A program made the translations under genes and the position numbers. Shown here piece by piece: positions 34,730 to 53,144 of a DNA stretch of 64,000 nucleotides; position 1 is the stretch's first letter; the number at the start of each line of letters is the position of its first letter. The notes beneath the pieces are model-generated. The model worked only from the letters and a program-made list of their open reading frames with translations, did not search any database and was not told the DNA's origin. Origin of the DNA: a virus. The stretch lies in the IMG/VR virus record IMGVR_UViG_3300029049_000006. One strand, given 5' to 3'.

Positions 34730-34868
34730 AATTTGCAATCATTGCAAATTTTTTTCTCAAAAAAGATTCTTTTTCTCTTGCAATTCATCAAAAATAATGC
34801 TAAATTGTGTTCATCAAAGGGAGGAAAGCTCCTAAGAATAAAAAACCTAAATTAGAAAGACCAAAACA
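34730..34868 (+). promoter_or_regulatory. palindrome plus promoter plus structured-leader cassette
   Basis: Palindrome 34730-34750; TTTTTCTCTTGCAATT; TAATGCTAAATT; hairpin GGAG-gaaag-CTCC 34820-34832; AGAATAAAAAACCTAAA; ATG 34869. Confidence 0.65.
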
Positions 34869-35198
34869 ATGATTATCTCCATGAACCCTTACGATAACTG
34901 GAAAATTGAAGTTAGCGAATTTTCCCATCTCAATCTGGGCATCGAAGGTGATTCCACAACGCTTGAAGATGAATCCGATGTTGCCTGGCTTCAAAATAAA
35001 ATAGAAGCCCGTCTGAATGTGCTGTGGGACCAGATTGACGCGAACCCCGGAGATAAAACTCTGGAAGGCGACATGGAAGAGTTGGAAGAAGCGCTGGAAG
35101 ACCTTGCTGCCGCCCGCGAAGAGCAGGAAGCCTACGAAATTAGGGAAGCCGAAGAATTTTTCCAGGAACAGTGCATGGAACGCTGCTACGCTTATTGA
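34869..35198 (+). CDS. hypothetical highly acidic protein
   Basis: 109 aa, ~30% Asp/Glu. Confidence 0.45.
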   Translation: MIISMNPYDNWKIEVSEFSHLNLGIEGDSTTLEDESDVAWLQNKIEARLNVLWDQIDANPGDKTLEGDMEELEEALEDLAAAREEQEAYEIREAEEFFQEQCMERCYAY

Positions 35199-35238
35199 TT
35201 AAATCTTATTTAACCCATTAAAAAACCTACTAAAAAAA

Positions 35239-35688
35239 ATGAAAAAGAACACATACGTAAGAACACGCCGTCAGGAGCCGCTGAATTCCGAAGTGAAGCA
35301 GCCGACCCCCAAAGAATTGGAAGACATCGCTACGCTGGCCCGCCAGTTTTATCAGCAGAACAAGATTAAAAATGCTGCTTCGACCAAGGAGCGTTCCATA
35401 CGGTCCCGGCTTCTCTCCTTGTGCGTGGAAGCCGGGGTGAAGTCCCAGGAAGTGGACTGCATTACCGAAGATGGAACCAAGCTCGTGCTGTCTGTCACCG
35501 TGGCCCCAGGACAGAAAAGCGTTATTGACCTGGACACGCTGAAACGGCTCATTCCCGCAGAACTGTACGAAAAATGCCTGTCCGCCACCCAGTCGAAAGT
35601 GGAGGAAGTGGCCGGAAAGAGCATTGCACTGGCCGCGAGGCGCGTAGTGTCCACGGAAATGAACGTGTCCGTGTCCACGAAAAAGTAA
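35239..35688 (+). CDS. hypothetical protein
   Basis: 149-aa ORF with AAAAAAA ATG leader. Confidence 0.4.
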   Translation: MKKNTYVRTRRQEPLNSEVKQPTPKELEDIATLARQFYQQNKIKNAASTKERSIRSRLLSLCVEAGVKSQEVDCITEDGTKLVLSVTVAPGQKSVIDLDTLKRLIPAELYEKCLSATQSKVEEVAGKSIALAARRVVSTEMNVSVSTKK

Positions 35689-35708
35689 CTTTGGTTGGGC
35701 GAAAGGGC

Positions 35709-36728
35709 ATGAAAGAATCAAGCATTCGGGAAATCCTGGCCGAACTGGGCATAGATGCGGCCCATCTGTCTCCCACCGGCTGGCTAATCTGTTCATGCCC
35801 TTTTGCCCAGGCCACGCATCAATACGGGACTGACCGCAGGCCGTCTTTCGGCGTCAAGGTGGATTTGGAATCCCCCTCAGCGTATAAATGTTTCACATGC
35901 CACGAGCACGGACTGTTCACCGGGCTTCCCATCCGGCTGGGCACGCTGCTGGGCGACCCCGGCATGTATAAGCAGGTCCGCAATCGGGCCGTGTTTCTGG
36001 AATCCGCCACCCTCCCTGACTTTGATGAGGGAGTGGCCGCCCAAACGGTCGAATCTTTGAGGGTACTTGACGTGGCAATGCTTGACATTTACCCGTCGCC
36101 AATGGATTCGGAGGCTCCACGGAAATACCTGCTTGAGCGCGGCGTTTCAGAGCACGCCGCCCTCGTCATGGATTTACGGTTTGACCCAAAAGAAAACCGA
36201 ATTCTTTTCCCGCTGTTTTCCAGAGACCGGGAACTGCTTGGATTTTCAGGCCGGTCTATCCTGTCCCCGCTTCCGGACGATACGCCAAAGATAAAGACCT
36301 ACGCCGGAGTGAAAACCGACCGCTGCCTGCTGGGCATTCATCTGATTCCGCATCAGCCGGACGGCAAACCCATATTTGTGGTTGAGGGCTTGTTTGCGTA
36401 CGCACATTTAATCTCCATTGGCGCCCGCAGATTCTGCCACCCGGTGGCCACCCTCGGATGCCACCTTTCATTTCCGCAGCGGGATATGCTGGCAATGCTG
36501 GGGCGGCCTGTGTTTCTTTGCTACGACGGTGACGTTGCGGGCACAATAGGATTGTTCGGAAAATGGAACCGGCAGGCTAAAAAGTTTATGGGTGACGGGG
36601 CGGTGGACAGATTGAAAGACCATGTGCCCACGTTTGTCTGCAAGTACCCGGTGGGGCGTTCCGACCCTGATGATTTGAGGTTGTCGGACGTAACGCAGAT
36701 GCTCGACAAGTGGAACACGGGCTATTGA
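35709..36728 (+). CDS. DNA primase (DnaG-like: CHC2 zinc finger plus TOPRIM)
   Basis: CPFAQATHQYGTDRRPSFGV...CFTCHEHG zinc-binding; IFVVEGLFAYAHL...CYDGDVAG TOPRIM. Confidence 0.7.
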   Translation: MKESSIREILAELGIDAAHLSPTGWLICSCPFAQATHQYGTDRRPSFGVKVDLESPSAYKCFTCHEHGLFTGLPIRLGTLLGDPGMYKQVRNRAVFLESATLPDFDEGVAAQTVESLRVLDVAMLDIYPSPMDSEAPRKYLLERGVSEHAALVMDLRFDPKENRILFPLFSRDRELLGFSGRSILSPLPDDTPKIKTYAGVKTDRCLLGIHLIPHQPDGKPIFVVEGLFAYAHLISIGARRFCHPVATLGCHLSFPQRDMLAMLGRPVFLCYDGDVAGTIGLFGKWNRQAKKFMGDGAVDRLKDHVPTFVCKYPVGRSDPDDLRLSDVTQMLDKWNTGY

Positions 36729-36789
36729 TAGCCACTTCTAGCCTTTTTCTTTTATAGGACGTTATAACTTTTAATTTTTTTACTCTTTT

Positions 36790-36835
36790 TTCTTGCAATA
36801 AAAAAATATCATGCTTAATATTTCATTGTTCCCAT
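36790..36835 (+). promoter_or_regulatory. putative promoter (TCTTGCAATA ... TAATATTT)
   Basis: TTG 36793-36795, 20-nt spacer, TAATATTT 36824-36831. Confidence 0.4.
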
Positions 36836-36889
36836 CATGGAACATCAGTAAAAAAACAATACTCCCATTGGAGACATTAAAAAAATAAT

Positions 36890-37915
36890 ATGAATACAAA
36901 CCAACCATCACAGAGCGCAAGGCGCGGTAAATCCGCATTGGAGCAGGCCGCAAAAAGTCAGCAGCAGCAATTCAGCCGGCAGCGCATGCCGTTCAGGTTT
37001 TTCCTCCCCAAAGGCGGCGAGGCTAAAATCGTCATTCTTGATTATGCTTTTGCCACCGACGACGGAACCGGAAACGGGCTTGTCATCAAGGAGCATAATT
37101 TGAAAAAGCCTGACGGGACGTTCGGGGATTTTCAGCCCTGCACTTCGGAGCGCGGGCATTGTGATATTTGCGAAACCTATAAGAAAGAATTCGCCCCGTA
37201 TTACGCCGTAGTCATGTCCATTATTGACTGGCGGCCGTACACCAACAAAAACGGGGAGACCGTCCAAGGCTCCAAAAAGTTGCTGGTCATTAAAATGTGG
37301 CAGCGCGACAAGTGGTACGAGCTTCAAGAAGTCGCGTTCGCGCAGAACGGCAAGCGCGGCATGCGGGGCATGACCCTCCGGATGAAACGGAGTATGGACG
37401 CGAAGAGCAGCAGCATTGGCGAGCCTGTGGCGTTTACTTCCCCCGCATCAATGGCCGGGCGCATGTGCGGATTCATGTCGGAGGAAGCTATGTTGATACG
37501 ATTTGGCGGGCAGGATATTGTTGGACGCGACGGCAAGGTCTATCAGAAGGCCGGAGACGGCATCAAGCCGTTCAACTACGACGAGCTTTTCCCGGAACCG
37601 GAACCCATCAATGAATTTTCCAACTCCAATTCCCGGTCTTCCGGTGATGCGGATTTTGGTGACGATGAAGACTTCGGTCAGGATTTGCAGGACGGTAACA
37701 GCGCGTCCGGAGATTTCGACCCGGAAGATTTCCGCCCCTCGGCAGACCAGGACGGCGGGGAAGATTACCTTAACGCCGACGCGGATTTTGCCGGTGATGA
37801 AGATTTTGAGCAGGAGCCTCCCGCCCGCACCAGAGGACGTCGCGTGCCTGACCCGGAAGAACCGGGGCAGCCGGGCCAAAGCCAGGATGATTTCGATGAC
37901 GACATCCCCATGTAG
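36890..37915 (+). CDS. single-stranded DNA-binding protein (gp32-like Zn region; acidic tail ending DDDIPM)
   Basis: C-terminal ...SQDDFDDDIPM mirrors bacterial SSB tip DDDIPF; CTSERGHCDIC putative Zn site; long acidic C-terminal domain. Confidence 0.55.
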   Translation: MNTNQPSQSARRGKSALEQAAKSQQQQFSRQRMPFRFFLPKGGEAKIVILDYAFATDDGTGNGLVIKEHNLKKPDGTFGDFQPCTSERGHCDICETYKKEFAPYYAVVMSIIDWRPYTNKNGETVQGSKKLLVIKMWQRDKWYELQEVAFAQNGKRGMRGMTLRMKRSMDAKSSSIGEPVAFTSPASMAGRMCGFMSEEAMLIRFGGQDIVGRDGKVYQKAGDGIKPFNYDELFPEPEPINEFSNSNSRSSGDADFGDDEDFGQDLQDGNSASGDFDPEDFRPSADQDGGEDYLNADADFAGDEDFEQEPPARTRGRRVPDPEEPGQPGQSQDDFDDDIPM

Positions 37916-39920: not shown

Positions 39921-39939
39921 ATTTGCAATGATTGCAAAT
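39921..39939. promoter_or_regulatory. 21-bp palindrome copy
   Basis: ATTTGCAATGATTGCAAAT followed by T7. Confidence 0.8.
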
Positions 39940-39972: not shown

Positions 39973-40350
39973 ATGAGTCAAGAAACATCCAATCGTTCCA
40001 GAGCGTTGCCCCCGCAGGGAGGTTCCGCTATCGTAGAAACCGCCGTCACGCAGAACCGCGTTCCGGTAACGGGCGGCGCGCATTCCATGCCGCTGAATCC
40101 GTTGTACAATGATAACCGCCCGTCAAATAACCCGGCGTATGTGGCCGTCGGCGCGTCCTTGACGCTTCCGGGGCGGCAAATGTATTCATCCGTGAAAATT
40201 ATGGCCACAGTCACCCTTCCGGCTTTTCCGGACGATGAATCCATTCAGGCTGCGGCGCAGGCCGCCGGAAATATGGCGGAAACGTTTTTATACGAAGAAG
40301 CCGACCGTTTTAAAGACTTTCTTCCGGAAGAAGGGAGGGGGCGTTGCTGA
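39973..40350 (+). CDS. hypothetical protein
   Basis: 125-aa ORF. Confidence 0.4.
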   Translation: MSQETSNRSRALPPQGGSAIVETAVTQNRVPVTGGAHSMPLNPLYNDNRPSNNPAYVAVGASLTLPGRQMYSSVKIMATVTLPAFPDDESIQAAAQAAGNMAETFLYEEADRFKDFLPEEGRGRC

Positions 40351-41576
40351 TGGCCGGGGAATCGCCAAAACGGTCGAGGTCGCAAAAAGCATCCGCCCCG
40401 GCGGGGCTGGCCGAACTGCGTGCCGACCTCGTGAAAGGCGGGCGTGGGCGGGCTATGGACGGCAGCCGCATCGGCGTAGATGACTGGATGATTCCCACGG
40501 GAATCTTCCACTTGGATTACGCTTTTTTGGGCGGCATCCAGGAAGGCCAGGTGACGATGTTCCTGGGGCTTCCGTCCGCGCATAAAACGACTATCGCCCT
40601 GAAAACCATTGCCGGGCTGCACCGGAAATACCCGGATAAATGGGCGGTGCTTGTGGATGCGGAAGACAACTACGACCAGAAATATTCACAGGATTTGGGC
40701 ATTGATACCGACCGCCTGGAAGTCATCAAACCCTTTGACGGGCCTACCGCCGTTGATGCGCTGGAAGCCGCATTGCGCGTCCCGGAAGTAGGGCTTGTCG
40801 TGCTGGATTCCATCCCTGCCTGTTCCGGGATGCAGGTGCTTACCAAATCGGCGGAAGATGCGAGCGTGTCGGAATTGGCGACAATCATGAGCCGGATGGC
40901 AAGTAAAATCACCTCGACGCTGGTGACGGAAAAAGAAAAAGGGCATCTGGTGTCCGTTATTCTTTTAAATCAGTTCCGTTCTAAAATCGGCGTCATGTTC
41001 GGGAATCCGCTGACCAGCCCCGGAGGTTATTTTATCAACCACCTGGCGACGAGAAAAATCGTGTTCCGGTCAAAGTCCATTCTTCAAAGCACCAGCCTGG
41101 ATGAAAAAGCGGAAGGAGTGGCCCAGATTTCTTTCACGGTGGAAAAATCAAAGTTCGGCGGTCCTGTCCGGGCTGGGGAATTTTTCATGTCGCATCTTCC
41201 GCAGGGCTACCCGGTGATGAACCCGTCGGCAACCAAGGAAAGCACCCGCATCTGCGTCAACCGCCCCTATTTACAGGGGGAGGTGATTGAAGAGCCGCAG
41301 GTAGTCCAGCTGGCCGTGAAATACGGGCTGCTTTCCGGCGCGGGGGCCAACATGTCCTGTCCGCTTGTCTCCCAGGAAAAGATGTCCAAGACGCAATGGA
41401 TGCTGTGGCTTAGGGACCACCCGGAAGAATCGGCTGTGCTCAAGGCAAACCTTGTCGCTCTGTACCGGGCGTACTCCAACCGCCAAACGGTTCCGGTTGA
41501 CGGGTATCTGCTCGGAGTCGGAAAAGATAGGATTCTGCCGGAGGAAAGCCTCCGGAAGATTATCGCCAACATGTGA
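40344..41576 (+). CDS. RecA/UvsX-like recombinase
   Basis: FLGLPSAHKTTIALKTIAG Walker A; VLVDAEDNYDQKYSQDLGIDTDRLEV...GLVVLDSIPAC matches RecA core. Confidence 0.75.
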   Translation: MLMAGESPKRSRSQKASAPAGLAELRADLVKGGRGRAMDGSRIGVDDWMIPTGIFHLDYAFLGGIQEGQVTMFLGLPSAHKTTIALKTIAGLHRKYPDKWAVLVDAEDNYDQKYSQDLGIDTDRLEVIKPFDGPTAVDALEAALRVPEVGLVVLDSIPACSGMQVLTKSAEDASVSELATIMSRMASKITSTLVTEKEKGHLVSVILLNQFRSKIGVMFGNPLTSPGGYFINHLATRKIVFRSKSILQSTSLDEKAEGVAQISFTVEKSKFGGPVRAGEFFMSHLPQGYPVMNPSATKESTRICVNRPYLQGEVIEEPQVVQLAVKYGLLSGAGANMSCPLVSQEKMSKTQWMLWLRDHPEESAVLKANLVALYRAYSNRQTVPVDGYLLGVGKDRILPEESLRKIIANM

Positions 41577-41588
41577 GGTGGGGGGGGT

Positions 41589-41948
41589 ATGAAACAACCA
41601 AAACGTTTAGGGGTTTTGACGCAGAGCCGGGCCTATAACCACGCCCCGGTACAGGAGCGGGAAGCCGCGAAAAGGCTTGGCGGGCGTACCACTCCGGCAT
41701 CCGGCTCCCTCCGGGAAAAAGGTGATGTGCGTGTTTCCGGCATTCTTCGTTTGGAGTGTAAGGCGACTTCAAAAAAATCGTTTTCCGTCACCAGGGACAT
41801 GGTGCGGAAAATCACGGAAGCCGGAGAACTTTCCGGGGAGCTGCCCGCCATTGAAATTGAGTTTCTTCCCTTGGCCGGGCAATTTCACGGGAGGGTTGCC
41901 GTTGTTCCGGCATACGTTCTGAATCAACTTGTTACCGGGGAAAAATAG
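41589..41948 (+). CDS. hypothetical protein (possible PD-(D/E)xK-type nuclease)
   Basis: GDVRVSGILRLECK D...E.K-like pattern; weak. Confidence 0.3.
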   Translation: MKQPKRLGVLTQSRAYNHAPVQEREAAKRLGGRTTPASGSLREKGDVRVSGILRLECKATSKKSFSVTRDMVRKITEAGELSGELPAIEIEFLPLAGQFHGRVAVVPAYVLNQLVTGEK

Positions 41949-41949
41949 C

Positions 41950-42906
41950 ATGGATAAGCAACAATTACTTCGCCGCCTTGGCTGGGAGCGTTCCCAGCCT
42001 CGGATAACCGTATCGGAAGCGGCGCATCCGACACAGGGGCCGTCGTCATCATTGGGGAGGGTTGACCTCCCCTCGGCGATTTCCGGAACGGTCGAACTTG
42101 AATCGCTGTCCGATATTTTGAACCGGGCCAGCAGGCAGCTTCACGAGTCTGAAAGGGTGCATGCGGATTGCCTGCACGTATCAAGTCTGATAGGCGATTA
42201 TTTATGCCCCCGCCGGATTTGGCTTGCGAGGCATCACCACCTCACGGCTGTCAGCCGGGTCAGCCCCGCAATGAAAATTGTGTGGGACATGGGCCGGGCA
42301 TGCGAAAAAACTGTCCGCGATTTGCTGATTGCCGGAATGGGCCGGTCAAGAGTTCTTGGAAAGTGGTCATGTGCGTGCGGAAAAACGTCGCACGTCGGAC
42401 AGGGTCAGGAAATTCATTGCAGTATCTGCGATACCGACTGCGCTATTTATGGCGAAGCTGACCTGTACTATTCGCCGCTAAAGATTTTCGGGCATTCCGA
42501 TTTTATTTATCTGGACGAAAACCGGAACGTCAATGTCGTGGAGATTAAATCCATCAATAAATCCGACTGGCTTGCATTATCGGAGCCGAAGCGTGACCAC
42601 GTTGCCCAGGTCTCCATGTATTACTTTATGCTGCGGGAGTCGATGGGGCAGGAGCGCATGTATCCGGGTGCGCAGATTATTTATGTGTGCAAGGATTACA
42701 TTACGCGGCAAATGCCGTGGAAGTGCTACACCGTCCCGCAGGGAACCTGTGAAGCCGTATCCGAAGAGGTTTTACGCACGGCAACCGCAGTCCAGAGCGG
42801 ATACGCTCCCGCCTGCCCGCCCCGGCTGATGTGCTGCACGTCGCCGGATTGCCTCACGTCCCGAAATTGTATTGCATGCGCCGTTTGTTTTATGCACAAT
42901 GATTAA
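41950..42906 (+). CDS. PD-(D/E)xK nuclease, Cas4/RecB-like with Cys cluster
   Basis: IYLDENRNVNVVEIKS (D...EiK); N-terminal Cys plus C-terminal CPPRLMCCTSPDCLTSRNCIACAVC cluster suggestive of Fe-S. Confidence 0.5.
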   Translation: MDKQQLLRRLGWERSQPRITVSEAAHPTQGPSSSLGRVDLPSAISGTVELESLSDILNRASRQLHESERVHADCLHVSSLIGDYLCPRRIWLARHHHLTAVSRVSPAMKIVWDMGRACEKTVRDLLIAGMGRSRVLGKWSCACGKTSHVGQGQEIHCSICDTDCAIYGEADLYYSPLKIFGHSDFIYLDENRNVNVVEIKSINKSDWLALSEPKRDHVAQVSMYYFMLRESMGQERMYPGAQIIYVCKDYITRQMPWKCYTVPQGTCEAVSEEVLRTATAVQSGYAPACPPRLMCCTSPDCLTSRNCIACAVCFMHND

Positions 42907-42930
42907 ACATTAAAGATAGATAGACGATTT

Positions 42931-43158
42931 ATGTTTTCACAGCCAGTATCCCCCGCCGTAGTCCGTACTTGCCGGATGTACGGAGTTCCTGAGGCCCTTG
43001 CCCCGATATGCCGGAATTTGACGAAGACGGGAATCAAAAAATTAGGAAGAGCGTATAAGGATTATACCGTCAAATGCGGAGCTGACCTGACCTGCGCTGA
43101 TGCCAGCAACTGGGGCGGAACCGTCATGCGAATCTTACGTGATTACCGGAAAAAATGA
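42931..43158 (+). CDS. hypothetical small protein
   Basis: 75-aa ORF; ATGA overlap with ruvC start. Confidence 0.3.
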   Translation: MFSQPVSPAVVRTCRMYGVPEALAPICRNLTKTGIKKLGRAYKDYTVKCGADLTCADASNWGGTVMRILRDYRKK

Positions 43159-43724
43159 ACATCCTCGGCATTGACCCGTCCCTGACTGCTACCGGGCTTT
43201 ATTTGCGGGAAACCGGGCTTATGGCCGCCCCGGAATCCACGCTGATTGCCCCAAAAAATTTGAGGGACATGGAGCGGCTGTGTTTTATCCGCGACTTCCT
43301 TCTCGGATTCATCAACAGAGACCGGGCGTTTTCTCCTGAATTGGCAGTCATTGAAGGGTATGCAATGGGAGCGAAAACCCATACACATGACCTCGGCGAA
43401 GCCGGGGCTATGCTGAAAACTGCGGTTTACGAGGCGGGAATTGACCTGCTGATAGTCCCGCCCGCCACGCTGAAAAAGTTCATCACGGGAAGCGGGAACA
43501 GCAAAAAACAGGTGATGATGGTGGAAGCGCTTTCCCGGTATCATGTCAAAATTACCGATGATAATATTTGTGATGCGTTCTGCCTGACACATTTTGGGGA
43601 AGCCTGGTACGCGGCTAATGCTTTTGGCCGTACAGCGGGAAAAATCGGCATCACAAAAAGCCAGTATGCCTGCCTGTCCGCCGCCCGGCTGGTTCCTGGC
43701 CGCAAACGGTCGTCTCGGAGATAA
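43155..43724 (+). CDS. ruvC: RuvC-like Holliday junction resolvase
   Basis: MNILGIDPSLTATG; AVIEGYAMG; FITGSGNSKKQVMMVEAL; DDNICDAFCLTHFG. Confidence 0.75.
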   Translation: MNILGIDPSLTATGLYLRETGLMAAPESTLIAPKNLRDMERLCFIRDFLLGFINRDRAFSPELAVIEGYAMGAKTHTHDLGEAGAMLKTAVYEAGIDLLIVPPATLKKFITGSGNSKKQVMMVEALSRYHVKITDDNICDAFCLTHFGEAWYAANAFGRTAGKIGITKSQYACLSAARLVPGRKRSSRR

Positions 43725-43749
43725 CCGGCTGCCGGTTTTTCCTTTTTCC

Positions 43750-43893
43750 AATTTGCAATCATTGCAAATTTTTTTCGCTGATTGTGTAATTTTATCTTGC
43801 AATTTCTAAAAAATAATGCTAAATTACATTCATCAAAGGGAGGGAATCCCTGAGAGAAAAAACCTAAAAACCTAAAAAACCTGTTAGACTAAA
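43750..43893 (+). promoter_or_regulatory. palindrome plus promoter plus structured-leader cassette
   Basis: Palindrome 43750-43770; TCTTGCAATTTCTAAAAAATAATGCTAAATTAC; hairpin AGGGA-gggaa-TCCCT 43837-43851; A-rich; ATG 43894. Confidence 0.65.
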
Positions 43894-44481
43894 ATGAATG
43901 CGATTGAAACCATGAGCCAGAAAGAGCTGAAAGAATATTACGCCGCTCTCACTTGCGGGGAAGGAACCAAGGCGGCTAAATGGACTATATCCGGTGCTTT
44001 TGAGATTGTAAAATTGTCTGACGGAAAACTTTATAAAATAGAAAAGCACCAGCTGGAAACTTCCTTCTGCTTTGGCTACGACGTAACGGAAGAATCGGAA
44101 CGCCGCGCGGATTCCCTGGCAGCGGACGCTAAAACTTATGAGGCGTTTTTGGCCGCCAATCTGGAAACCATAGCGCGGGACATTAACCGGCTGGAAAAGG
44201 CTATCGCCAATGGCAATACACCGCAGTTCGACGGCACGAAAGCCTTCTACTCCTGCAACGCTTATGTCAACGGACCAGATACGGCGGTATGCGTATTTTT
44301 CATGAACTGGATGAACGATTTCCGGGGTATGGAAAACACACACCTTACTTCCGTGTCCGACCTTGAGCTGATTATTGCCGCCTTGAAGCGCAAGGCGGAA
44401 AACGTCCGGAAGCGTTGCCTTTCCTACTGGAAAAAATACGGGGCCAGCAAGCTTAATGTCTGGACGTATTACCGTGATTGA
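43894..44481 (+). CDS. hypothetical protein
   Basis: 195-aa ORF directly after cassette. Confidence 0.45.
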   Translation: MNAIETMSQKELKEYYAALTCGEGTKAAKWTISGAFEIVKLSDGKLYKIEKHQLETSFCFGYDVTEESERRADSLAADAKTYEAFLAANLETIARDINRLEKAIANGNTPQFDGTKAFYSCNAYVNGPDTAVCVFFMNWMNDFRGMENTHLTSVSDLELIIAALKRKAENVRKRCLSYWKKYGASKLNVWTYYRD

Positions 44482-44484
44482 ACA

Positions 44485-44623
44485 TTTGCAACGATTGCAA
44501 ATTTTTTTCTCAAAAAGATTCTTTTTTCTCTTGCAATTTCTAAAAAAGAATGATAAATTGAGTTCATCAAAGGGAGGGAAACCTCCCAAGAATAAAAAAC
44601 CTAAAAACCTGAAAGACAAGATT
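44485..44623 (+). promoter_or_regulatory. palindrome (1 mismatch) plus promoter plus structured-leader cassette
   Basis: ATTTGCAACGATTGCAAAT; TCTTGCAATTTCTAAAAAAGAATGATAAATTGAG; hairpin GGGAGG-GAAA-CCTCCC 44572-44587; ATG 44624. Confidence 0.65.
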
Positions 44624-44836
44624 ATGAACAACAAAGAAACATTCTATCTGGTTGAAGTTTACCACCTCGGAACTGCTGTTGGCAGCCTTATTTCCCTTGA
44701 CCATGTGCACCGTTGCAAGTCCCTGGAATCTGCGAAAGACTTTGGTTCCATCATGAAAGAAAAAAATGGGTGGTTTGAAGTAACGGAAATTACTTCCAAA
44801 GGCCGTTCCATTGTGTTTGACTCCCGCAACAACTAA
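44624..44836 (+). CDS. hypothetical small protein
   Basis: 70 aa. Confidence 0.4.
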   Translation: MNNKETFYLVEVYHLGTAVGSLISLDHVHRCKSLESAKDFGSIMKEKNGWFEVTEITSKGRSIVFDSRNN

Positions 44837-45037: not shown

Positions 45038-45276
45038 CGCAAATGCTGGTTCTGGGAGTCGTTTTTTCATGAAATCAAAAGCACAAGCCGCCATTGATAT
45101 CCTTCTCAAAATGCGGAACACGGAATGGGAAAATCGGTATAAAGAAAACGGCATTAAGTTTGAAACCTGCGTGAATATCTAAAATCCTCAAGCCCCTCTT
45201 TGGAGGGGCAAGACCCCTCCACCGCAACCAGAAAAACTTTTCAGCAGTAAAAATTTTCGGTGGTACTAATTAGGTT

Positions 45277-45324
45277 CTGCCCCCTTTTCCGGCATTCCGT
45301 TGCTGGGAAGGGGGCAGTTTTTTT
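45277..45324 (+). terminator. intrinsic terminator
   Basis: 10-bp stem CTGCCCCCTT/AAGGGGGCAG, ~21-nt loop, T7. Confidence 0.55.
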
Positions 45325-45488
45325 GCGTCAATTTGTAGTGGTATTTTTAATTTTAGCGCACAAATAACTATATATTGCGGCTATTTTCGTAAACGGTTGA
45401 CTTTGAGAAAAATAAACTCTTGAACCGGTTTGGCGGCAAGTTAAGATGCCGGAGGTTAAACACTAGTTTGGCTGTCTTCTATCTTTTC

Positions 45489-45532
45489 GGCCCCTAATTC
45501 GGAGTGATGCCCGGATTAGGGGCCTTTTTTTT
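45489..45532 (+). terminator. strong intrinsic terminator
   Basis: 10-bp perfect stem GGCCCCTAAT/ATTAGGGGCC, 16-nt loop, T8. Confidence 0.7.
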
Positions 45533-45536
45533 CTTC

Positions 45537-45681
45537 AATTTGCAACCATTGCAAATTTTTTTCTCAAAAAGATTCTTTTTTCTCTTGCAATTCAGAAAAA
45601 ATAATGCTAAATTACATTCATCAAAGGGAGGGAATCCCTAAGAGAAAAAACTTAAAAACCTAAAAAACCTGTTAGACTAAA
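45537..45681 (+). promoter_or_regulatory. palindrome (1 mismatch) plus promoter plus structured-leader cassette
   Basis: AATTTGCAACCATTGCAAATT; same cassette as 43750; ATG 45682. Confidence 0.65.
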
Positions 45682-45951
45682 ATGAATACCGTAACCGAAA
45701 CTGAAATCAAGTTAGGCTCCAAAATTAAACCGACTTGGAAGCTTTCCAGGGTGCGTGCGATTGTCGGAAAGGAAACCGAAAAGGCAATCCGTATTGACCT
45801 CGATTATAGCAGCAGGTCTGAATATCATTGGCTTCCAAAAAGCCTTATTGCAGCTATCGAAGAAAAAGAGGACGGAACATGGGCCGGGGATTCTTACATT
45901 ACTCTTCCCACCTGGTTTTGCATCGAAAATGGCTTTGTGACCGAACAATAA
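45682..45951 (+). CDS. hypothetical protein
   Basis: 89 aa. Confidence 0.45.
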   Translation: MNTVTETEIKLGSKIKPTWKLSRVRAIVGKETEKAIRIDLDYSSRSEYHWLPKSLIAAIEEKEDGTWAGDSYITLPTWFCIENGFVTEQ

Positions 45952-46155: not shown

Positions 46156-46758
46156 ATGAAACCCGCTATGCAATCTCAAATGACTGATTTACTGCACGAC
46201 GCTGACCGCCTTTCAGAAGAGGCATATCGTTCCCGGCTGCGCTATCTGGGCAGGCTGGTTGATTCGCCCCAGAATGCCCCCATAGTGCGGAAAGTGCGGA
46301 ATATGGGCGCCAAACGCTGGAACAGCCTGATTCAGCTCGTGCATAACGTGTGCATTGCTTCCGACGAGCCTCTGGGGCTTCATGACCGGAACTGGCTGGA
46401 ATCGGCATTAGGCTACACAGCGTTGCATGTGTTTATTTCCGCCGGAAACCGAAGGCTGATGTTTATCCAGATTATGCTGGACGAGCTGTTTTCCGGGCGG
46501 GAATTCGCGGGCTTTGACCGCATCATCGCCCTTGTGGCCAAAGAGGCCCCCATTGTATATAATGGTTCCGGGCTTTATTACCATATCCCCCCGGTAATCC
46601 GTCAGGAGCTGGAATTAAACGCGGGAAGGGGAAGCGGCGCCAGCGTCCGGAAAAATCTGGAAGACAGCATCCGGCATTTGGACGGCATCAGCCGGAAATG
46701 CACGGGTGTTCCCGTCATCACCCATATGCTTTACTATGGCCTCCGTTTGTTCTCCTGA
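46156..46758 (+). CDS. hypothetical protein
   Basis: 200 aa. Confidence 0.4.
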   Translation: MKPAMQSQMTDLLHDADRLSEEAYRSRLRYLGRLVDSPQNAPIVRKVRNMGAKRWNSLIQLVHNVCIASDEPLGLHDRNWLESALGYTALHVFISAGNRRLMFIQIMLDELFSGREFAGFDRIIALVAKEAPIVYNGSGLYYHIPPVIRQELELNAGRGSGASVRKNLEDSIRHLDGISRKCTGVPVITHMLYYGLRLFS

Positions 46759-47509
46759 TTCCCGGCCCGTTGAGGGCAGTCTGGTAAAACCGGGCTTTTA
46801 CTCTGTGCTGGAAAAATTGCCGCTGGAATACATAGGCCCCTCCGAACGGTTTTTCCTGTGGTTGGAATTTGCTTTTTCCGTCATGTCCGGAACGCCCCTG
46901 AATTCTTCCGTTACCGAAAAAATGAGCGCGGGAAGGGAAGGTTATGAGGCTATCCAGCGCGGGTTTCTGGACTGCATCAGGCTTCTTGGGGACGACATGG
47001 AGCGGAAGCCCTATGAAGACCTGCTGGGAGGTTACCATGAAATGTTGAACAGTCAGATGACCCGGACGGCAAACGGTCAATTTTATACCCCGATGCATGT
47101 CTGCCGTCTTATGGCTAAAATCACCGTATCGGAACAGCTCGTGGAAAAACTGAAACTTGGGGAAGTGATAAAAATGAACGAGCCCGCCTGCGGCTCCGGG
47201 CGCACTATGCTTGCCGTAGCGGAAATACTTTCCGAACACCGCTCCAAGATGCGTGTGATTTGCACCGACATCGACATCCGGGCCTGCTGGATGTGTTTCA
47301 TCAACTTGACTATGTGGGGCATCCCGGCAACGGTCATCCACGGGGATACGCTGTCTGGGAAAGAGTGGGGGCGCTGGGTCAATATGTTTTGGTTGATTGG
47401 AGAGGCGGAAAGAAAACGCCAGCTCAAGGTCAAAAAAATTATAGACGCAGTGCAGAAGCTTTGCCCTGATGAACAAAATATTCCGGCATTTCCCCGGTGC
47501 AGAGACTAA
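46706..47509 (+). CDS. HsdM/N6-adenine-methyltransferase-like protein lacking catalytic motif IV
   Basis: GQFYTPMHVCRLMAKI (TP motif), NEPACGSGRTML (motif I), ICTDIDIRACWMCFINLTMWGI; no NPPF/DPPY downstream before stop; start may be ATG 46883. Confidence 0.45.
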   Translation: MFPSSPICFTMASVCSPDSRPVEGSLVKPGFYSVLEKLPLEYIGPSERFFLWLEFAFSVMSGTPLNSSVTEKMSAGREGYEAIQRGFLDCIRLLGDDMERKPYEDLLGGYHEMLNSQMTRTANGQFYTPMHVCRLMAKITVSEQLVEKLKLGEVIKMNEPACGSGRTMLAVAEILSEHRSKMRVICTDIDIRACWMCFINLTMWGIPATVIHGDTLSGKEWGRWVNMFWLIGEAERKRQLKVKKIIDAVQKLCPDEQNIPAFPRCRD

Positions 47510-49201: not shown

Positions 49202-49216
49202 TAGACTTCCCGGCAT

Positions 49217-50071
49217 ATGGCAACTGATAATGATGACGAGTTTTCCGGTTTTTTCGGGGACGATTCCGGCGGATTTTTCGATGAACCCCAGGAACCTTCC
49301 AGCGCCCCAGATACCCCGGAATCACAGGAGGAAGCCCCGCCGGAGGAACCTGACGAAGACGAGGATGACGGGGAACTTAATGAGCTTGCCGGGACTGGCG
49401 CCGGAACGGTCGCACGCCTGAACCCGGAGATTCGACATCAGATTATGGCCCAGGCCAATTCCCGCGCCTGGACGCGCCATGAACGCCATGTTGTCATGCG
49501 CCGGGCCATGTCGGCGGGAAAGCTGGAAGAGATTATTGACTGGTACCCGCGTTCCGGACAGAGCATCCACATTTTATCTTGTGGGGAGGTAGATTTGTTT
49601 TCCTACTTGCATTTCATGCTCCGTCAACGCCCCTATGCCTACATTTTGCTTTCGACATTCAGCCTCGGCTACATGGAAATTCGCAACCTGCACGAGTATC
49701 TGGAAAAAGGAGTGATTGGCCGCCTGGATGTGTATGCCGGAAGCATTTTCCGCAACCGGACTATCCGGACGCGGGAATATGATGCGCTGGTTGCCCTGCA
49801 CCAGAGATTTCCGCATTGTTTTTGCGGTCTGGCAAATGTCCACGCGAAAGTCATTGCCGGGATTGACCGGGACAATGGGGAAGGCGACTTTGTTGTAGAG
49901 GCCAGTGCTAATGCCAACCTGAATTTCCGCGTTGAGCAGGCTTGTCTGACGATGGACACCGATTTGGCGCTTTTTTACAAGGAGGCGTTTGACGGCGTGG
50001 ATTGCCCGCAGGATGCCCAGTATTTTAAGGATGTGAGGCGGACTCCGTGGGTGGTTGACCGGAAAAGCTGA
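49217..50071 (+). CDS. hypothetical protein with acidic N-terminus
   Basis: 284 aa. Confidence 0.4.
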   Translation: MATDNDDEFSGFFGDDSGGFFDEPQEPSSAPDTPESQEEAPPEEPDEDEDDGELNELAGTGAGTVARLNPEIRHQIMAQANSRAWTRHERHVVMRRAMSAGKLEEIIDWYPRSGQSIHILSCGEVDLFSYLHFMLRQRPYAYILLSTFSLGYMEIRNLHEYLEKGVIGRLDVYAGSIFRNRTIRTREYDALVALHQRFPHCFCGLANVHAKVIAGIDRDNGEGDFVVEASANANLNFRVEQACLTMDTDLALFYKEAFDGVDCPQDAQYFKDVRRTPWVVDRKS

Positions 50072-50206
50072 TTTGCAATCATTGCAAATTTTTCCCGGCA
50101 ATCCTGATTTTTTCTCTTGCAATTTGTCAAAAAGAATGCTAACTTATATTCATCAAAGGGAGATAAAACCTTAAAAATAAAAAACCTAAAAACCTGTTAG
50201 AATAAG
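50071..50206 (+). promoter_or_regulatory. palindrome plus promoter plus leader cassette
   Basis: ATTTGCAATCATTGCAAATT abutting stop 50069-50071; TCTTGCAATTTGTCAAAAAGAATGCTAACTTATATTC; degenerate hairpin; ATG 50207. Confidence 0.6.
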
Positions 50207-50479
50207 ATGACCGGAATTACACTGCAAGACGGAGTTTCAGAAATCAATAAGTATTTTCAGAAGTATTGCCGCCCCAGTAAGGTGCGTAACGCTTCTCTTA
50301 TTTCTCAGCATTCCGTAATGATAAAGGCAGACCCCAGTGACATCAAAGACGATTCCAGCTGTGATAAGGCCCTCCGCCATTTGAAGCAGCTCGTGCAGGA
50401 CATGACCTGCATGGAGGTGGAATCCGTGGATATTGACCGCTATTCCAGCGGGTACGAGTTCACTTTTACCTTGCGTTGA
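50207..50479 (+). CDS. hypothetical protein
   Basis: 90 aa. Confidence 0.4.
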   Translation: MTGITLQDGVSEINKYFQKYCRPSKVRNASLISQHSVMIKADPSDIKDDSSCDKALRHLKQLVQDMTCMEVESVDIDRYSSGYEFTFTLR

Positions 50480-50760: not shown

Positions 50761-50791
50761 ATGACAATTTTTTTTTAACAAAAATATACAT

Positions 50792-51124
50792 ATGGAAGAC
50801 GAGCCGAAAATTGCATCACCAAGAAAAATTAAACCGGTGTTCCGGAAATGGGGATTTGACTACCGCCTAATCCGAAGGCAGGGGAATGTGGTCTTGTACG
50901 AGCAGAAATCCAAATACGGGAATATCATATCGTATGAGGTCATGCGCGTCCAAACGGTCAAGTCCCCCACGGAGTTTCATCAGGTCGGCGACGAGTACCT
51001 TCCCGGAACCAACTCCTGGGGAACTCTGGGCTGGACACTCGGCACGCTGAAAGATGCTGAAAAGCGTTTTGCCGAAATAGTGTACCGGTATGAGCCTTCC
51101 GAGGTAAAAATCTCAAGACGCTAG
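50792..51124 (+). CDS. hypothetical protein
   Basis: 110 aa. Confidence 0.4.
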   Translation: MEDEPKIASPRKIKPVFRKWGFDYRLIRRQGNVVLYEQKSKYGNIISYEVMRVQTVKSPTEFHQVGDEYLPGTNSWGTLGWTLGTLKDAEKRFAEIVYRYEPSEVKISRR

Positions 51125-51144
51125 CGCGGGCTGGCTACCGACTG

Positions 51145-51318
51145 ATGTTTCTGCAGTTTTTAGCTTCCGGGGCCGTGACAGTTCTAGGCGCTCAAATGTT
51201 GCTTTGCACCTTTTCCTGCATCAGACACCGGATGCTGGTTGGAGCAATCCTTAACTGGCTGGCGGGCATTGCGCTGATTAAATGCGGGTATTATTTATTA
51301 CTGGATATTTTCATGTAG
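51145..51318 (+). CDS. hypothetical 57-aa membrane peptide
   Basis: MFLQFLASGAVTVLGAQMLLCTFSCIRHRMLVGAILNWLAGIALIKCGYYLLLDIFM; below ORF-track cutoff. Confidence 0.25.
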   Translation: MFLQFLASGAVTVLGAQMLLCTFSCIRHRMLVGAILNWLAGIALIKCGYYLLLDIFM

Positions 51319-51319
51319 T

Positions 51320-51437
51320 TAAAAAATTATTTTTTGTGTTTTTTATCTTGCAATTTCTGAAAAATAATACTAAAGTACATTCATCGGGGGGGAGAGAAAA
51401 ACCCTGAGAATAAAAACCTGAAATATAATAAAACACG
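51320..51437 (+). promoter_or_regulatory. promoter plus leader cassette without palindrome
   Basis: TCTTGCAATTTCTGAAAAATAATACTAAAGTACATTCATCGGGGGGGAGAGAAAAACCCTGAGAATAAAAACC; ATG 51438. Confidence 0.55.
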
Positions 51438-51821
51438 ATGAGCAACAATTATTGTTTAAAAGCTTCCGGCAAGCAGATTGTCGAACTCGCGCGGTTAATG
51501 GATGTGCATTCCAGACGCACCGGATTTGATGAGCCGATATTGTACCTGGGAGATGCCTGCCGCCTGGAACCCATTCCCTACTCCAAAGTGTATGCGACTT
51601 GCGACACGCCCCGGATATTTTCCGCATGTCTGGTGGATGAATCCAGCTCCCATGACCTGATGGAGCTGACTGACCTGTTTGGTGTGGTAGGCTTGTTCCC
51701 TCATCACCCCCGGCTGCTTCCGTCTTATTTCAGCACGCAAAAATTAAAGTTCTGCGGGGAATATGTCTCCGTATATTGCGCGTATATTTACGTTCCTGAA
51801 CATCCTGATTTTTTGCAATGA
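51438..51821 (+). CDS. hypothetical protein
   Basis: 127 aa; stop codon lies inside palindrome. Confidence 0.4.
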   Translation: MSNNYCLKASGKQIVELARLMDVHSRRTGFDEPILYLGDACRLEPIPYSKVYATCDTPRIFSACLVDESSSHDLMELTDLFGVVGLFPHHPRLLPSYFSTQKLKFCGEYVSVYCAYIYVPEHPDFLQ

Positions 51822-51831
51822 TTGCAAATTC
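51811..51831. promoter_or_regulatory. 21-bp palindrome copy
   Basis: TTTTGCAATGATTGCAAATTC. Confidence 0.75.
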
Positions 51832-51866
51832 AAAAACTTTTTTATCAATTACAATAATTTAATTTT

Positions 51867-52934
51867 ATGAAGTTCTACACGAAAATCCCTAAGAATCCTT
51901 CCAACGTTTCCCACACCTCTTCCCTTACAGGCGAATATCAGGAATATCTTAAACACGGGTTTATTTACGATAAACTTCCAGCTTACAAACCAAAGCGAAA
52001 AACGATGTTCCAGGCGCTTTCTTCCATAGCAGGGCTGAAAGCTACCCGGAATCCGGGCTACTTTTCTCCGGTAGTGCATAACAATATCGCTTACGCTACA
52101 AACGGTTGTATTCTGGTCTGGATAGACTTGTCCCTGGTGGACGAGGCGGAAAGAATGGATGAAGGCATTCATTTTAATTCGACATTGTGGACAGGAGACC
52201 TGGACAAAACGGAAATGGTGGAAGCTTCCATTCGCCGGCTGGCGGAATCCAGCTGGGGCGAGTTTAAACAGCTGCTGGAAAAATCCGGGGAAGCCGATTA
52301 CGTCACACGGCAATTCCGCATTGAGCATATGCCGGTGCTGAAAAAAGCCGGGCAAAGTTTTTATTGTCTGGATGCGGGTACACAGGCAGTTTGGGCCGCA
52401 GTCAATATTCCGGTGTGCCCGATTGTCCACGTATCAAGTGCGTCCCTATACACGTGGATGGATGCCGTTTATTCCCTGATGCCGGAAAAACAGTTTCCCG
52501 CCATTACCGCGCACCTGTCCGTTCCGAAGGAATCCGGGCGGAAAAATAGCATCTATCTATCTGTGGAAGGGTTTGAATACAACCGGCTTGGCGCCTTCGT
52601 TTATGGTACTGACCATTTTCCGGAAAGGCTGACCTACCTATGGACTGACCCGGATGCGGACCCCAAAGCCGGAGGGCTGACTTTGCCGATACAAAAAGAC
52701 CCGGAGAACGATGGCCCAAGATGGAGTGAAGCGCGTCTTGTCCCTGTACATGACCCGACGGACCGTTCCATGATTATTTCCGTGCCGGGAAGAGTAAGTG
52801 ATTGCGTCCAGGTAAAAGGAAACAATGGAGGCCCGGAACTGCATTTTTACTGTGATGAGCGTTCTATGCGCCGGTTTTATCAGTCTTTAGGGGAATACTT
52901 TAGCCGACGGGACGCGGGAAAAAGTGAATCATAA
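51867..52934 (+). CDS. hypothetical protein
   Basis: 355 aa. Confidence 0.45.
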   Translation: MKFYTKIPKNPSNVSHTSSLTGEYQEYLKHGFIYDKLPAYKPKRKTMFQALSSIAGLKATRNPGYFSPVVHNNIAYATNGCILVWIDLSLVDEAERMDEGIHFNSTLWTGDLDKTEMVEASIRRLAESSWGEFKQLLEKSGEADYVTRQFRIEHMPVLKKAGQSFYCLDAGTQAVWAAVNIPVCPIVHVSSASLYTWMDAVYSLMPEKQFPAITAHLSVPKESGRKNSIYLSVEGFEYNRLGAFVYGTDHFPERLTYLWTDPDADPKAGGLTLPIQKDPENDGPRWSEARLVPVHDPTDRSMIISVPGRVSDCVQVKGNNGGPELHFYCDERSMRRFYQSLGEYFSRRDAGKSES

Positions 52935-53006
52935 ATAGCCGCAAGGGAACTCCGGGGAAATAATCTTCCCCGGAGCTTTTTTATTCCTCCCCCGATTTCC
53001 TTTTCC

Positions 53007-53144
53007 AATTTGCAACGATTGCAAATTTTTTTCTCAAAAAAGATTTTTTTCTCTTGCAATTTCTAAAAAAGAATGATAAATTACATTCATCAAAGGGAGG
53101 GAATCCCTGAGAGAAAAAAACAAAAAACCTAAATTACTGATACC
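53007..53144 (+). promoter_or_regulatory. palindrome (1 mismatch) plus promoter plus structured-leader cassette
   Basis: AATTTGCAACGATTGCAAATT; cassette as 44485; hairpin AGGGA-gggaa-TCCCT; ATG 53145. Confidence 0.65.

Follow-up and report, generated by a model that had tools for sequence, protein, structure and literature searches.

An expression cassette of about 135 bp recurs in a 64,000-nucleotide stretch of viral DNA (IMG/VR record IMGVR_UViG_3300029049_000006, hereafter called the window), which covers most of the genome of a siphovirus-like phage that has nearly all of its genes on the plus strand. Eight near-identical cassettes, one minus-strand cassette and three promoter-only copies were found (Table 1). 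The typical copy consists of a 19-bp dyad, a T-run, a promoter, a short hairpin and an A-rich leader that ends at an ATG. Judged from this organization, the cassette is probably the standard transcription-unit head of the phage, reused before at least twelve gene blocks and composed of a protein-bound dyad, an UP-like tract, a primary-sigma promoter, a 5' stem-loop and a leader devoid of a Shine-Dalgarno sequence.

In the mechanism that we favor, the dyad is most likely bound by a dimeric, sequence-specific and presumably phage-encoded protein, and would act as an operator or insulator. Ten further gene boundaries, all without promoter, carry this dyad as well. The T7 run and the phased A5/T6 tracts would provide an UP-like A/T-rich region, and these tracts together with the weak hairpin of the dyad may attenuate read-through. 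CTTGCAAT-N16-TAAATT(AC), whose upstream box is a dyad half-site, would serve as promoter for the primary-sigma holoenzyme. The A of ATCAAAGGG is the predicted transcription start, and the short G-rich stem-loop formed at the 5' end of the mRNA might protect this end or tune promoter escape. Finally, the unstructured A/C-rich leader with its AAAAACCT repeats might support Shine-Dalgarno-independent translation, as in Bacteroidota.

Cassette anatomy, promoter boxes and leaders

The repeat search returned families of seven to eight members spanning the palindrome, the T-run, TCTTGCAATT and the -7 region. TCTTGCAATT occurs eleven times exactly, at the cassette sites and at 17641 (minus strand), 22244 and 25089, and once more with one mismatch at 36791. 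When CTTGCAAT-N16-TAnnnT was searched with at most one mismatch, 15 matches were obtained as compared to 1.0 expected, and none of 100 shuffled sequences reached 15. These counts bear out a preliminary description of the window which had reported repeated promoter-plus-leader units. Repeat families, TCTTGCAATT matches and start codons place near-identical cassettes before the open reading frames (ORFs) listed there, and the looser variant at 32745, the minus-strand copy and the three promoter-only copies are likewise present.

The TTG-N20-TA spacing is kept in all eight cassettes (N19-20 in the other four promoters), and TAnnnT is obeyed by eleven of the twelve promoters. The dyad is found at a fixed distance of 44-45 bp from the -33 box with its centre at about position -72, and tracts of T7, A5-6 and T5-6 lie between dyad and promoter. 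Leaders of the eight cassettes are 42-62 nt long, contain 48-56% A and 12-18% T, and start with ATCAAAGGGAG followed by the short hairpin.

Between strains, no change was found in the TCTTGCAATT box (0/160). The corresponding values were 2.9% for the spacer, 9.4% for the -7 box, 5.1% for the initial transcribed sequence, 6.4% for the remaining leader and 3.3% for adjacent coding sequence. No other element of the cassette is as constrained as the -33 box, which is at the same time a dyad half-site. The window contains 60 TTGCAA hexamers, of which 35 are located in dyads, 12 in -33 boxes and 13 elsewhere (21 expected). In two relatives of the phage (L126 and L128) and in Aeromonas phage HJ05, (C/G)TTGCAA is similarly found at -35/-33 of promoters that adjoin the dyads of these phages.

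A hairpin behind the start, as previously proposed, forms in most cassette variants and begins 4-6 nt past the predicted start. It combines a constant 5' arm, AAAGGGAG, with at least six 3' arms that pair with it in the window and in sister strains (CCCT, CTCC, CCTCCC, GCCC, CCCTCC and CTCTCTTT); folding energies range from -2.9 to -12.8 kcal/mol. At two promoter-only copies the -7 box is followed by 4 nt and directly by the ATG (22281 and 25126). As this ATG occupies the equivalent position, the start is predicted at the A of ATCAAAGGG, 5 nt past the -7 box, which would place the stem-loop right at the 5' terminus of the mRNA. The leaderless geometry of these two copies backs the start site predicted in the preliminary description, and the genes at 22281 and 25126 are predicted to give rise to leaderless mRNAs. 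Start sites in Bacteroidota lie 4-5 nt past the -7 element (Baez 2019, PMC6847099). In F. johnsoniae, 87% of the mapped transcripts have leaders of more than 10 nt (PMC6847099), and the predicted leaderless mRNAs would thus be unusual for this phylum.

The A-rich leader without a Shine-Dalgarno sequence was also confirmed. GGAG or GAGG is present at -20..-4 in 10 of 80 genes as compared to 9.2% of random positions, i.e. without enrichment, and the frequency of A at position -3 of the starts is 0.46. The leader was further compared with lambda-type nut sites, which combine a 5-bp stem and GNRA-like loop with a conserved boxA and depend on an N-like antiterminator protein. GAAA loops are present in two of the eight window copies (32622 and 44484; Table 1), the remaining loops being 5-12 nt long; in the window no N-like protein was identifiable and no Rfam match was obtained. 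A scan of viral contigs with the leader 14-mer TTCATCAAAGGGAG gave mostly single matches in unrelated contigs, apparently by chance.

The cassettes had been thought to drive small accessory genes. This holds for most first genes: nine of the ten that were scanned could be assigned to neither a Pfam nor a PHROG family with the default cut-off, being mostly small ORFans, and six of the eight cassettes lie within the ORFan-rich region of 43-54 kb. Several of the cassettes, on the other hand, precede gene blocks with as many as eight members, namely those starting at 32745, at 34869 (through primase) and at 45682 (through 50071), and these blocks include replication and methylase genes. The cassettes would be heads of early or middle transcription units in general rather than drivers of accessory genes alone.

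The TTGCAA dyad in the window and in related phages

The dyad ATTTGCAA-NNN-TTGCAAAT spans 19 bp with two self-complementary TTGCAA hexamers 3 nt apart, and was found 18 times in the window as compared to 0.02 expected. Since ten of these copies have no cassette promoter (Table 1), the palindrome is not cassette-specific. Palindrome and T-run had been described as part of the cassette. The dyad, however, occurs genome- and clade-wide and resembles a protein site rather than simply a terminator. Its centre reads TCA (nine copies), TGA (five), CGA (three) or CCA (one), without strand bias (10 C, 8 G). In sister strains only one of 688 arm positions was changed as compared to nine of 129 in the centre (7%) and 3.0% in the flanks of 120 nt on either side. 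As the arms are near-invariant while the centre drifts, the arm sequence itself must be under selection beyond pairing. The dyad as such was rejected as a promoter, given that its centre lies 18 to 165 nt from the next ATG and that no correctly spaced -7 box is present, except possibly at 51811. Four further dyads and one further cassette were detected in a sister genome (L033) beyond the span of the window.

Palindrome families of at least three copies were counted in 82 loci of the polymerase clade, collected around homologues of the family-A DNA polymerase (PolA), in 115 control viral loci (0.96 Mb) and in 80 loci of cellular Pol I. The clade is defined by a common replication and recombination module consisting of PolA, DnaB, primase, RecA-like protein and RuvC. 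A palindrome family was present in 34 of the 82 clade loci and in none of the 115 unrelated viral loci; the four families found at the 80 cellular loci are unrelated in sequence to the TTGCAA dyad. Nearly all clade families follow TTG[C/A]AA-N3/4-TT[G/T]CAA with co-varying inner positions, examples being TTGCAAC[A/T]GTTGCAA, TTGCAGGAACCTGCAA, TTGAAAAGTTTTCAA and TTGCAATCAATTGCAA. In many relatives about half of the sites are located inside coding sequence (PolA, helicase, primase), where they are translated e.g. as LQQLQ or HLQTLQ.

The cultured Aeromonas phage HJ05, whose PolA is 43% identical, carries 14 dyads in 49 kb. Half of them lie in annotated genes and the others between a terminator and the promoter GTTGCA-N17-TATAAT; flanking T's are found upstream and A's downstream. 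On account of the intragenic sites and this flank polarity, a double-stranded DNA binding site fits better than an RNA hairpin. Pseudomonas phage SM1 resembles HJ05 in possessing homologous dyads along with repeated promoters. The nearest relatives have kept the whole cassette layout with different sequences. In L126, TTGCAATCAATTTCAA abuts stop codons and is followed by TTTCTTGCAATTT. L127 possesses three cassettes, nearly identical and about 190 bp long, with an A/C-rich leader and a co-varying leader hairpin (CGCC-GAGAAAA-GGCG versus GGCC-GAGAAA-GGCC). In L127 (7171-7290) and L128 (7163-7270) a dyad lies within the Rep-O-like gene, and two iteron-like direct repeats plus an A-rich tract come immediately behind it; this arrangement looks like a lambda-type origin within an initiator gene.

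Hosts of the clade span several phyla: Bacteroidota-like for the phage described here, and Aeromonas, Pseudomonas, Rhizobium and Rhodobacter for cultured relatives. Neither literature searches on the dyad in related phages nor a paper on the related phages of the Rhodobacter RcF cluster (PMC8601537) mentioned such repeats, and a clade-wide TTGCAA dyad that doubles as the upstream box of promoters appears to be undescribed. It is possible, if clearly less probable than the function as unit head, that the dyad is the cis-element of an undescribed global control at the DNA level common to 75-110-kb siphoviruses with a UDG-domain PolA. One dimeric protein would then read TTGCAA both as dyad and as -35/-33 box, coupling promoter recognition to a genome-wide set of 10-18 dyad sites inside and between genes. 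Such a protein might mimic or appropriate sigma region 4, or the sites might function as KorB-like silencers or insulators.

Table 1. Coordinates of cassettes, promoter copies, dyads, terminators and marker genes in the window
Feature	Position	Strand	ATG	Description
Cassette, looser variant	32622..32744	+	32745	Before 422-aa gene behind DNA polymerase; dyad 32622-32640, then T7; -33 box TCTTGCAATT 32666-32675; -7 box TATAACAA 32691-32698; predicted start ~32703; hairpin GGGC-GAAA-GCCC, -9.4 kcal/mol
Cassette	34731..34868	+	34869	Before ORF 34869-35198; dyad 34731-34749, then T7; -33 box 34776-34785; -7 box TAAATTGT 34801-34808; predicted start ~34813; hairpin GGGAG/CTCCT, 5-nt loop, -6.9 kcal/mol
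Cassette	43751..43893	+	43894	Before ORF 43894-44481; dyad 43751-43769, then T7; -33 box 43795-43804; -7 box TAAATTAC 43820-43827; predicted start ~43832; hairpin AGGGA/TCCCT; leader with AAAAACCT repeats
Cassette	44484..44623	+	44624	Before ORF 44624-44836; dyad 44484-44502 (centre CGA), then T7; -33 box 44529-44538; -7 box TAAATTGA 44554-44561; predicted start ~44566; hairpin GGGAGG-GAAA-CCTCCC, -12.8 kcal/mol, z -3.0
Cassette	45538..45681	+	45682	Before ORF 45682-45951, head of ~8-gene block reaching 50071; dyad 45538-45556 (centre CCA), then T7; -33 box 45583-45592; -7 box TAAATTAC 45608-45615; predicted start ~45620
Cassette	50071..50206	+	50207	Before ORF 50207-50479; dyad 50071-50089, first base is last base of upstream stop codon; -33 box 50115-50124; -7 box TAACTTAT 50140-50147; predicted start ~50152; weak hairpin, -2.9 kcal/mol
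Cassette without dyad	51346..51437	+	51438	Before ORF 51438-51821; upstream A/T-rich tract, no palindrome; -33 box 51346-51355; -7 box TAAAGTAC 51371-51378; predicted start ~51383; hairpin GGG.../CCC, -8.6 kcal/mol
Cassette	53008..53144	+	53145	Before ORF 53145-53405; dyad 53008-53026 (centre CGA), then T7; -33 box 53052-53061; -7 box TAAATTAC 53077-53084; predicted start ~53089
Minus-strand cassette	17604..17694	-		ORF 17603..17235; dyad 17676-17694; -33 box TCTTGCAATT 17650..17641; TATGATAA 19 nt past TTG; leader ~11 nt (ATCAAGATACA); no hairpin
Promoter-only copy, leaderless geometry	22244..22280	+	22281	TCTTGCAATT 22244-22253; TATAGTTT 22269-22276; 4 nt to ATG
Promoter-only copy, leaderless geometry	25089..25125	+	25126	TCTTGCAATT 25089-25098; TATATTAC 25114-25121; TGAC before ATG
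Promoter-only copy, own leader hairpin	36791..36889	+	36890	Before SSB-like gene 36890-37915; TCTTGCAATA 36791-36800; TAATATTT 36816-36823; hairpin GTTCC-CATCAT-GGAAC
Dyad without cassette promoter	3842..3860			Exact ATTTGCAATNATTGCAAAT; 3 nt past stop codon, 156 nt before major capsid gene
Dyad without cassette promoter	9866..9884			Between genes 9341-9847 and 9910-10485; no T-run
Dyad without cassette promoter	13881..13899			14 nt past tape-measure stop, 8 nt before next ATG; no T-run
Dyad without cassette promoter, 1 mismatch	20525..20543			End of structural block; separate hairpin + T-run terminator behind
Dyad without cassette promoter	22497..22515			Before AAA-ATPase gene 22549; dyad hairpin -12.1 kcal/mol with flanking A and T runs
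Dyad without cassette promoter, degenerate, 2 mismatches	26295..26313			Before DUF2997 gene; same sequence kept in 4 strain sequences
Dyad + T7 without cassette promoter	39921..39939			Inside helicase-to-RecA-to-RuvC block
Dyad without cassette promoter	51811..51829			Centre is stop codon of ORF 51438-51821; TCAATTAC 17 nt past right arm, 7/8 match to cassette -7 box
Dyad without cassette promoter	58269..58287			13 nt past large-terminase stop, before ParB-like paralog 1
Dyad without cassette promoter	62599..62617		62641	24 nt before ATG of ParB-like paralog 2
Extra TTGCAA-AACA-TTGCAA pair	8684..8699			4-nt spacer; within coding region
Terminator, GC-containing hairpin + T-run	43723..43747	+		Just before dyad 43751; AACCGGCTGCCGGTT, then TTTCCTTTTT
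Terminator, strong, canonical	45489..45534	+		Before dyad 45538; 14-bp stem, 9 GC pairs, T8
Terminator, strong, canonical	52950..52985	+		Before dyad 53008; 10-bp stem, 7 GC pairs, CTTTTTTATT
Major capsid protein gene	4016-5674
Tape measure gene	10679-13867
DnaB gene	28473-29744
PolA gene	29719-32601
Large terminase gene	56766-58256

Promoter type, binding protein and alternative explanations

Several observations weigh against the composite transcription-unit head. In Bacteroidota, T-12, A-11, T-8, T-7, T-6 and G-5 of the -7 element TAHHTTTG are nearly invariant and the -33 element is weak (Baez 2019, PMC6847099). The cassette boxes (TAAATTAC, TAAATTGT, TAAATTGA, TAACTTAT, TAAAGTAC, TATAACAA) always have T-12 and A-11 and mostly T-8/T-7, while T-6 and G-5 are missing in all eight, so that four of the six Bacteroidota positions are matched. 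TAHHTTTG is not enriched in the window (18 on both strands as compared to a back-of-envelope expectation of about 17), and recognition of the cassettes by host sigma-A is not assured. When the proteins of the window were compared with Pfam, PHROGs and NCBIfam, no helix-turn-helix or sigma family was detected, and no dyad-binding protein was identified in the window scans. Z-scores of the leader hairpins are modest (-0.4 to -3.7), with a weak structure at 50071 and no fold at 17641. All 18 dyads of the window are intergenic and abut stop codons, and eight or nine of them have a T-run, which would also fit an RNA element at 3' ends. Finally, a host was not identified by homology in searches with PolA, the large terminase and the lysin. 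The phages retrieved by tblastn with PolA and the large terminase were all distant and infect Proteobacteria and other hosts, a profile scan of genome contigs picked up Pol I genes of cells instead of phage relatives, and the lysin homologues, mostly metagenome proteins without a name, did not indicate a host.

Candidates for the binding protein were also considered individually. The ParB-like paralogs encoded behind two of the dyads are weak candidates: their family, phrog_620, occurs in unrelated 35-50-kb phages and is absent from polymerase-clade contigs among the best 80 matches. Genes conserved together with PolA code for replisome and recombination proteins. A regulator was likewise sought in the 14 kb of the sister genome beyond the span of the window, where sulfate-activation and transferase genes were found instead.

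The preliminary description had regarded the promoters, by their spacing, as fitting the Bacteroidetes sigma-A type. In agreement with sigma-ABfr promoters they show TTG, about 20 nt and TAnnTT, an A/T-rich spacer and an A at -3, combined with unstructured A-rich leaders without Shine-Dalgarno sequence whose length is of the same order as the mean of 33 nt in F. johnsoniae (PMC6847099). They differ from them in the missing T-6/G-5 and in a far more conserved -33 box, and they can also be read as TTGCAA-N17-TAAATT, a generic sigma-70 promoter that fits equally well. In Bacteroidota, TTG(-33) precedes the -7 element by about 19-21 nt, in agreement with the cassettes. Since TTG-N20-TA corresponds to the -35/N17/-10 layout of sigma-70, the spacing is not diagnostic for Bacteroidota sigma-A. 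A scan for the sigma-70 consensus left the cassette promoters uncalled (8/12 matches, below the cut-off), and the total promoter count did not exceed the level of shuffled sequences. A sigma-54 reading of TTGCA was dismissed because of misfit in the spacing. Given that the -7 box fits the generic layout equally, the proposed host phylum, which stays tentative, rests mainly on the missing Shine-Dalgarno sequence, besides the A-rich leaders; taken together, a Bacteroidota host is likely.

The palindrome and T-run could simply be a Rho-independent terminator that insulates units at terminator-promoter junctions, the copies without T-run being attenuators or decayed. The dyads do lie 0-27 nt past stop codons, T5-T7 follows in eight or nine cases, pairing of flanking A/T brings the hairpin to between -8.7 and -12.1 kcal/mol at three promoterless sites, and the stem-loops of a comparable phage cassette are proven terminators (PMC2839356). 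Against this, the A/U-rich stem has two G-C pairs and folds at -5.7 to -6.7 kcal/mol at four of the six sites folded (about -6 kcal/mol in cassette copies), and it was not called in a terminator scan of the window. Strong GC-rich terminators are already located 10-30 nt before three cassettes. The arms are invariant, with neither compensatory nor wobble changes, and the centre drifts. Nine or ten copies without T-run lie 8-45 nt ahead of a start codon, and the dyad at 39921 must be read through because the genes downstream of it (39973-43724) have no cassette promoter. In relatives, dyads lie inside essential coding sequences, and the flank polarity in HJ05 is wrong for a terminator. The weak hairpin, the invariant arms, the upstream terminators and the clade-wide intragenic dyads argue for a protein-binding site, and we consider a plain terminator unlikely. 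A sequence-recognised RNA or single-stranded DNA element, such as a 3' stabiliser of the repetitive extragenic palindrome (REP) type, a processing hairpin or a replication or recombination signal, would account for the strictly intergenic position beside stop codons in the window phage, for the replication/recombination module shared by the clade and for the iteron-like repeats beside the dyad of L127 and L128. The lack of strand bias in the centre speaks against it, as do imperfect copies in relatives (TTGAAA with TTGCAA), which give A-G or C-U mismatches instead of wobble pairs. Further, RNase III would need a longer stem and no RAYT- or IS200-like gene was seen in the window, making such an element very improbable.

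Two further explanations concern the cassette as a whole. The promoters might not be early promoters that need the host alone, but of an activator-dependent, middle type, in which a phage protein or phage sigma factor reads TTGCAAT at -33 in the manner of a MotA box and binds the dyads as a dimer. This would agree with the invariance of the -33 box relative to the -7 box (0/160 versus 9.4%), the opposite of Bacteroidota promoters, in which the -7 element dominates (PMC6847099), with the use of a dyad half-site as box in the window, L126, L128 and HJ05, and with the -7 box lacking T-6 and G-5. On the other hand, the scans revealed no protein resembling MotA, AsiA or a sigma factor, the window holds no other enriched host-type promoter class from which the activator could first be expressed (about 20 kb of the genome lie outside), and TTGCAA-N17-TAAATT is by itself a plausible primary-sigma promoter; we regard activator dependence as rather unlikely. 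To a similar degree it is doubtful that the cassettes are mainly recombination linkers which move ORFans by shuffling or gene conversion, with regulation being secondary, a role that would be compatible with a transcription-unit head. The near-identity over about 135 bp at eight sites concentrated in the ORFan-rich 43-54 kb points to such a role. So do orthologous copies of cassette c43, which are 90-91% identical between strains as compared to 99.3% for adjacent coding sequence, cassette c34 in L046, which is likewise more diverged than adjacent coding sequence and at 89% is equally close to the c53 copy and to its own ortholog, and precedent in other phages. However, strains that are 95-99% identical are colinear without any cassette-bounded insertion, deletion or replacement, and most orthologous cassettes are conserved like their flanks.

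Genomic context and known systems

In addition to the marker genes of Table 1, a helicase gene was recognised in the window, and Pfam added a Rep-O-like protein, RecA-like protein, RuvC, an N6-methylase, a TET-associated glycosyltransferase (TAGT) and the two ParB-like paralogs. A tRNA scan of the window was negative, and no credible Rfam match was obtained at gathering thresholds (window) or at E<=1 (43-54 kb). Megablast of 15 kb of the window against a phage collection gave no match, i.e. deposited phages contain no near match. Sequences of 95-99% identity are IMG/VR 3300014804_000005 (L033; 83.6 kb) and several contigs derived from the Human Microbiome Project, and the phage is therefore considered uncultivated and human-associated. 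It looks lytic, having its own replisome and no integrase seen in the 64 kb.

Two gaps stand out among the genes. The 867 nt at 20509-21375, which separate the structural block from the lysozyme gene, lack a convincing ORF and hold a dyad, a hairpin + T-run terminator, an A/T-rich segment and promoter-like matches at 20847(+) and, as canonical TATATTTG, at 20809(-); they could represent an origin or a non-coding RNA region. The ORF-less gap of 355 nt at 45183-45537 is bounded by two strong GC-rich terminators (45281-45314 and 45489-45524), has no credible Rfam match and could encode a small RNA.

Further observations relate to single genes. The 832-aa AAA-ATPase (22549-25047) carries an intein-like insert, in which residues 311-405 correspond to an intein N-terminal splicing region and matches to HNH endonucleases lie around residues 495-545; its homologues in L127 and L128 have 549 aa and lack the insert. 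The product of 36890-37915 (341 aa) ends in the acidic tail DDFDDDIPM as in bacterial single-strand DNA-binding protein (SSB), is kept in 16 of 25 relatives and is probably the phage single-strand DNA-binding protein. Encoded at 46736-47509, 58450-60416 and 62593-63480, an N6-adenine methylase-like protein, the TAGT (E 7e-27) and two paralogs with ParB-N domain, which are 51% identical and have in common a conserved C-terminal domain of unknown function, suggest a possible DNA-modification set and hypermodified phage DNA. At 54310-55842 four tandem paralogous small proteins of 106-125 aa are encoded, with an N-terminal motif including TPEQ or TTEQ and a C-terminal CxxC...CxxC cluster; the first, the only one scanned singly, gave a marginal match to the NCBIfam 'mobilome CxxCx(11)CxxC protein' (E 0.0066). 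Beyond the span of the window, L033 contains a sulfate-activation/transfer set made up of a PAPS-reductase/CysD-like domain, an EF-Tu-type GTPase (CysN-like), APS kinase, a sulfotransferase-like protein and a low-molecular-weight phosphatase. Not a single copy of the palindromic hexamer TTCGAA was found in the 64 kb, as compared to 23 copies of AAGCTT and 20 of TTGGAA, which suggests avoidance of a restriction site.

Transcription signals of phages of the Bacteroidota type are almost unmapped. A promoter combined with a 5' stem-loop and a leader lacking a Shine-Dalgarno sequence would be an expression part for gut or oral Bacteroidota and a guide in the annotation of early genes. The dyad is a simple, searchable hallmark that is present also in cultured phages such as HJ05, which makes its presumed binding protein and a possible role in the timing of early expression testable in tractable hosts.

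By analogy, the closest known kind of element is the promoter-early stem-loop (PeSL) cassette of T4-like myoviruses (Arbiol et al. 2010, PMC2839356; Comeau et al. 2014, PMC4122927). Both are conserved composites (about 100 bp in PeSL) with many copies per genome that combine an A/T-rich region, a primary-sigma promoter, a stem-loop, a leader and an ATG, and both are concentrated beside small ORFans in a variable region. The PeSL stem-loop is G/C-rich, variable in sequence, a proven terminator and usually positioned within or beside the -35/-10 region, and PeSL ends in a Shine-Dalgarno sequence. In contrast, the cassette described here has an invariant A/T-rich dyad at about -72, a separate 5'-terminal stem-loop and no Shine-Dalgarno sequence. 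Its dyad is also found promoterless and clade-wide, and the strains compared (95-99% identity) show no cassette-bounded exchange of genes. T4 middle promoters (MotA box at -30 and a -10 box) are alike in that a phage-specific box replaces the -35 element upstream of TAnnnT, and the MotA box (a/t)(a/t)TGCTT(t/c)A loosely resembles TTTGCAAT; they are unlike in that MotA boxes are neither palindromic nor arranged in dyads, and homologs of MotA or AsiA were undetected in the window. The REP elements and related BIMEs (bacterial interspersed mosaic elements), which are imperfect palindromes of 35-40 bp mobilised by RAYT, are not matched by a perfect palindrome of 19 bp, and the scans of the window gave no Y1-transposase family.

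Dispersed operator sets are known from phiC31, where conserved inverted repeats accompany near-identical early promoters, from the C1 operators of P1 and from the stoperators of mycobacteriophage L5; the OB sites of RK2 KorB are 13-bp palindromes with a central C/G. In these systems one regulator, whose identity is established, controls many units, mostly in temperate phages and plasmids, whereas the phage described here looks lytic and its dyad extends across host phyla. The dyad shares with them an invariant short site present in 12-30 copies at gene boundaries, near or far from promoters, as well as a palindromic form with a free central base: with 18 copies, constrained arms and a free centre, it has these features of an operator set.

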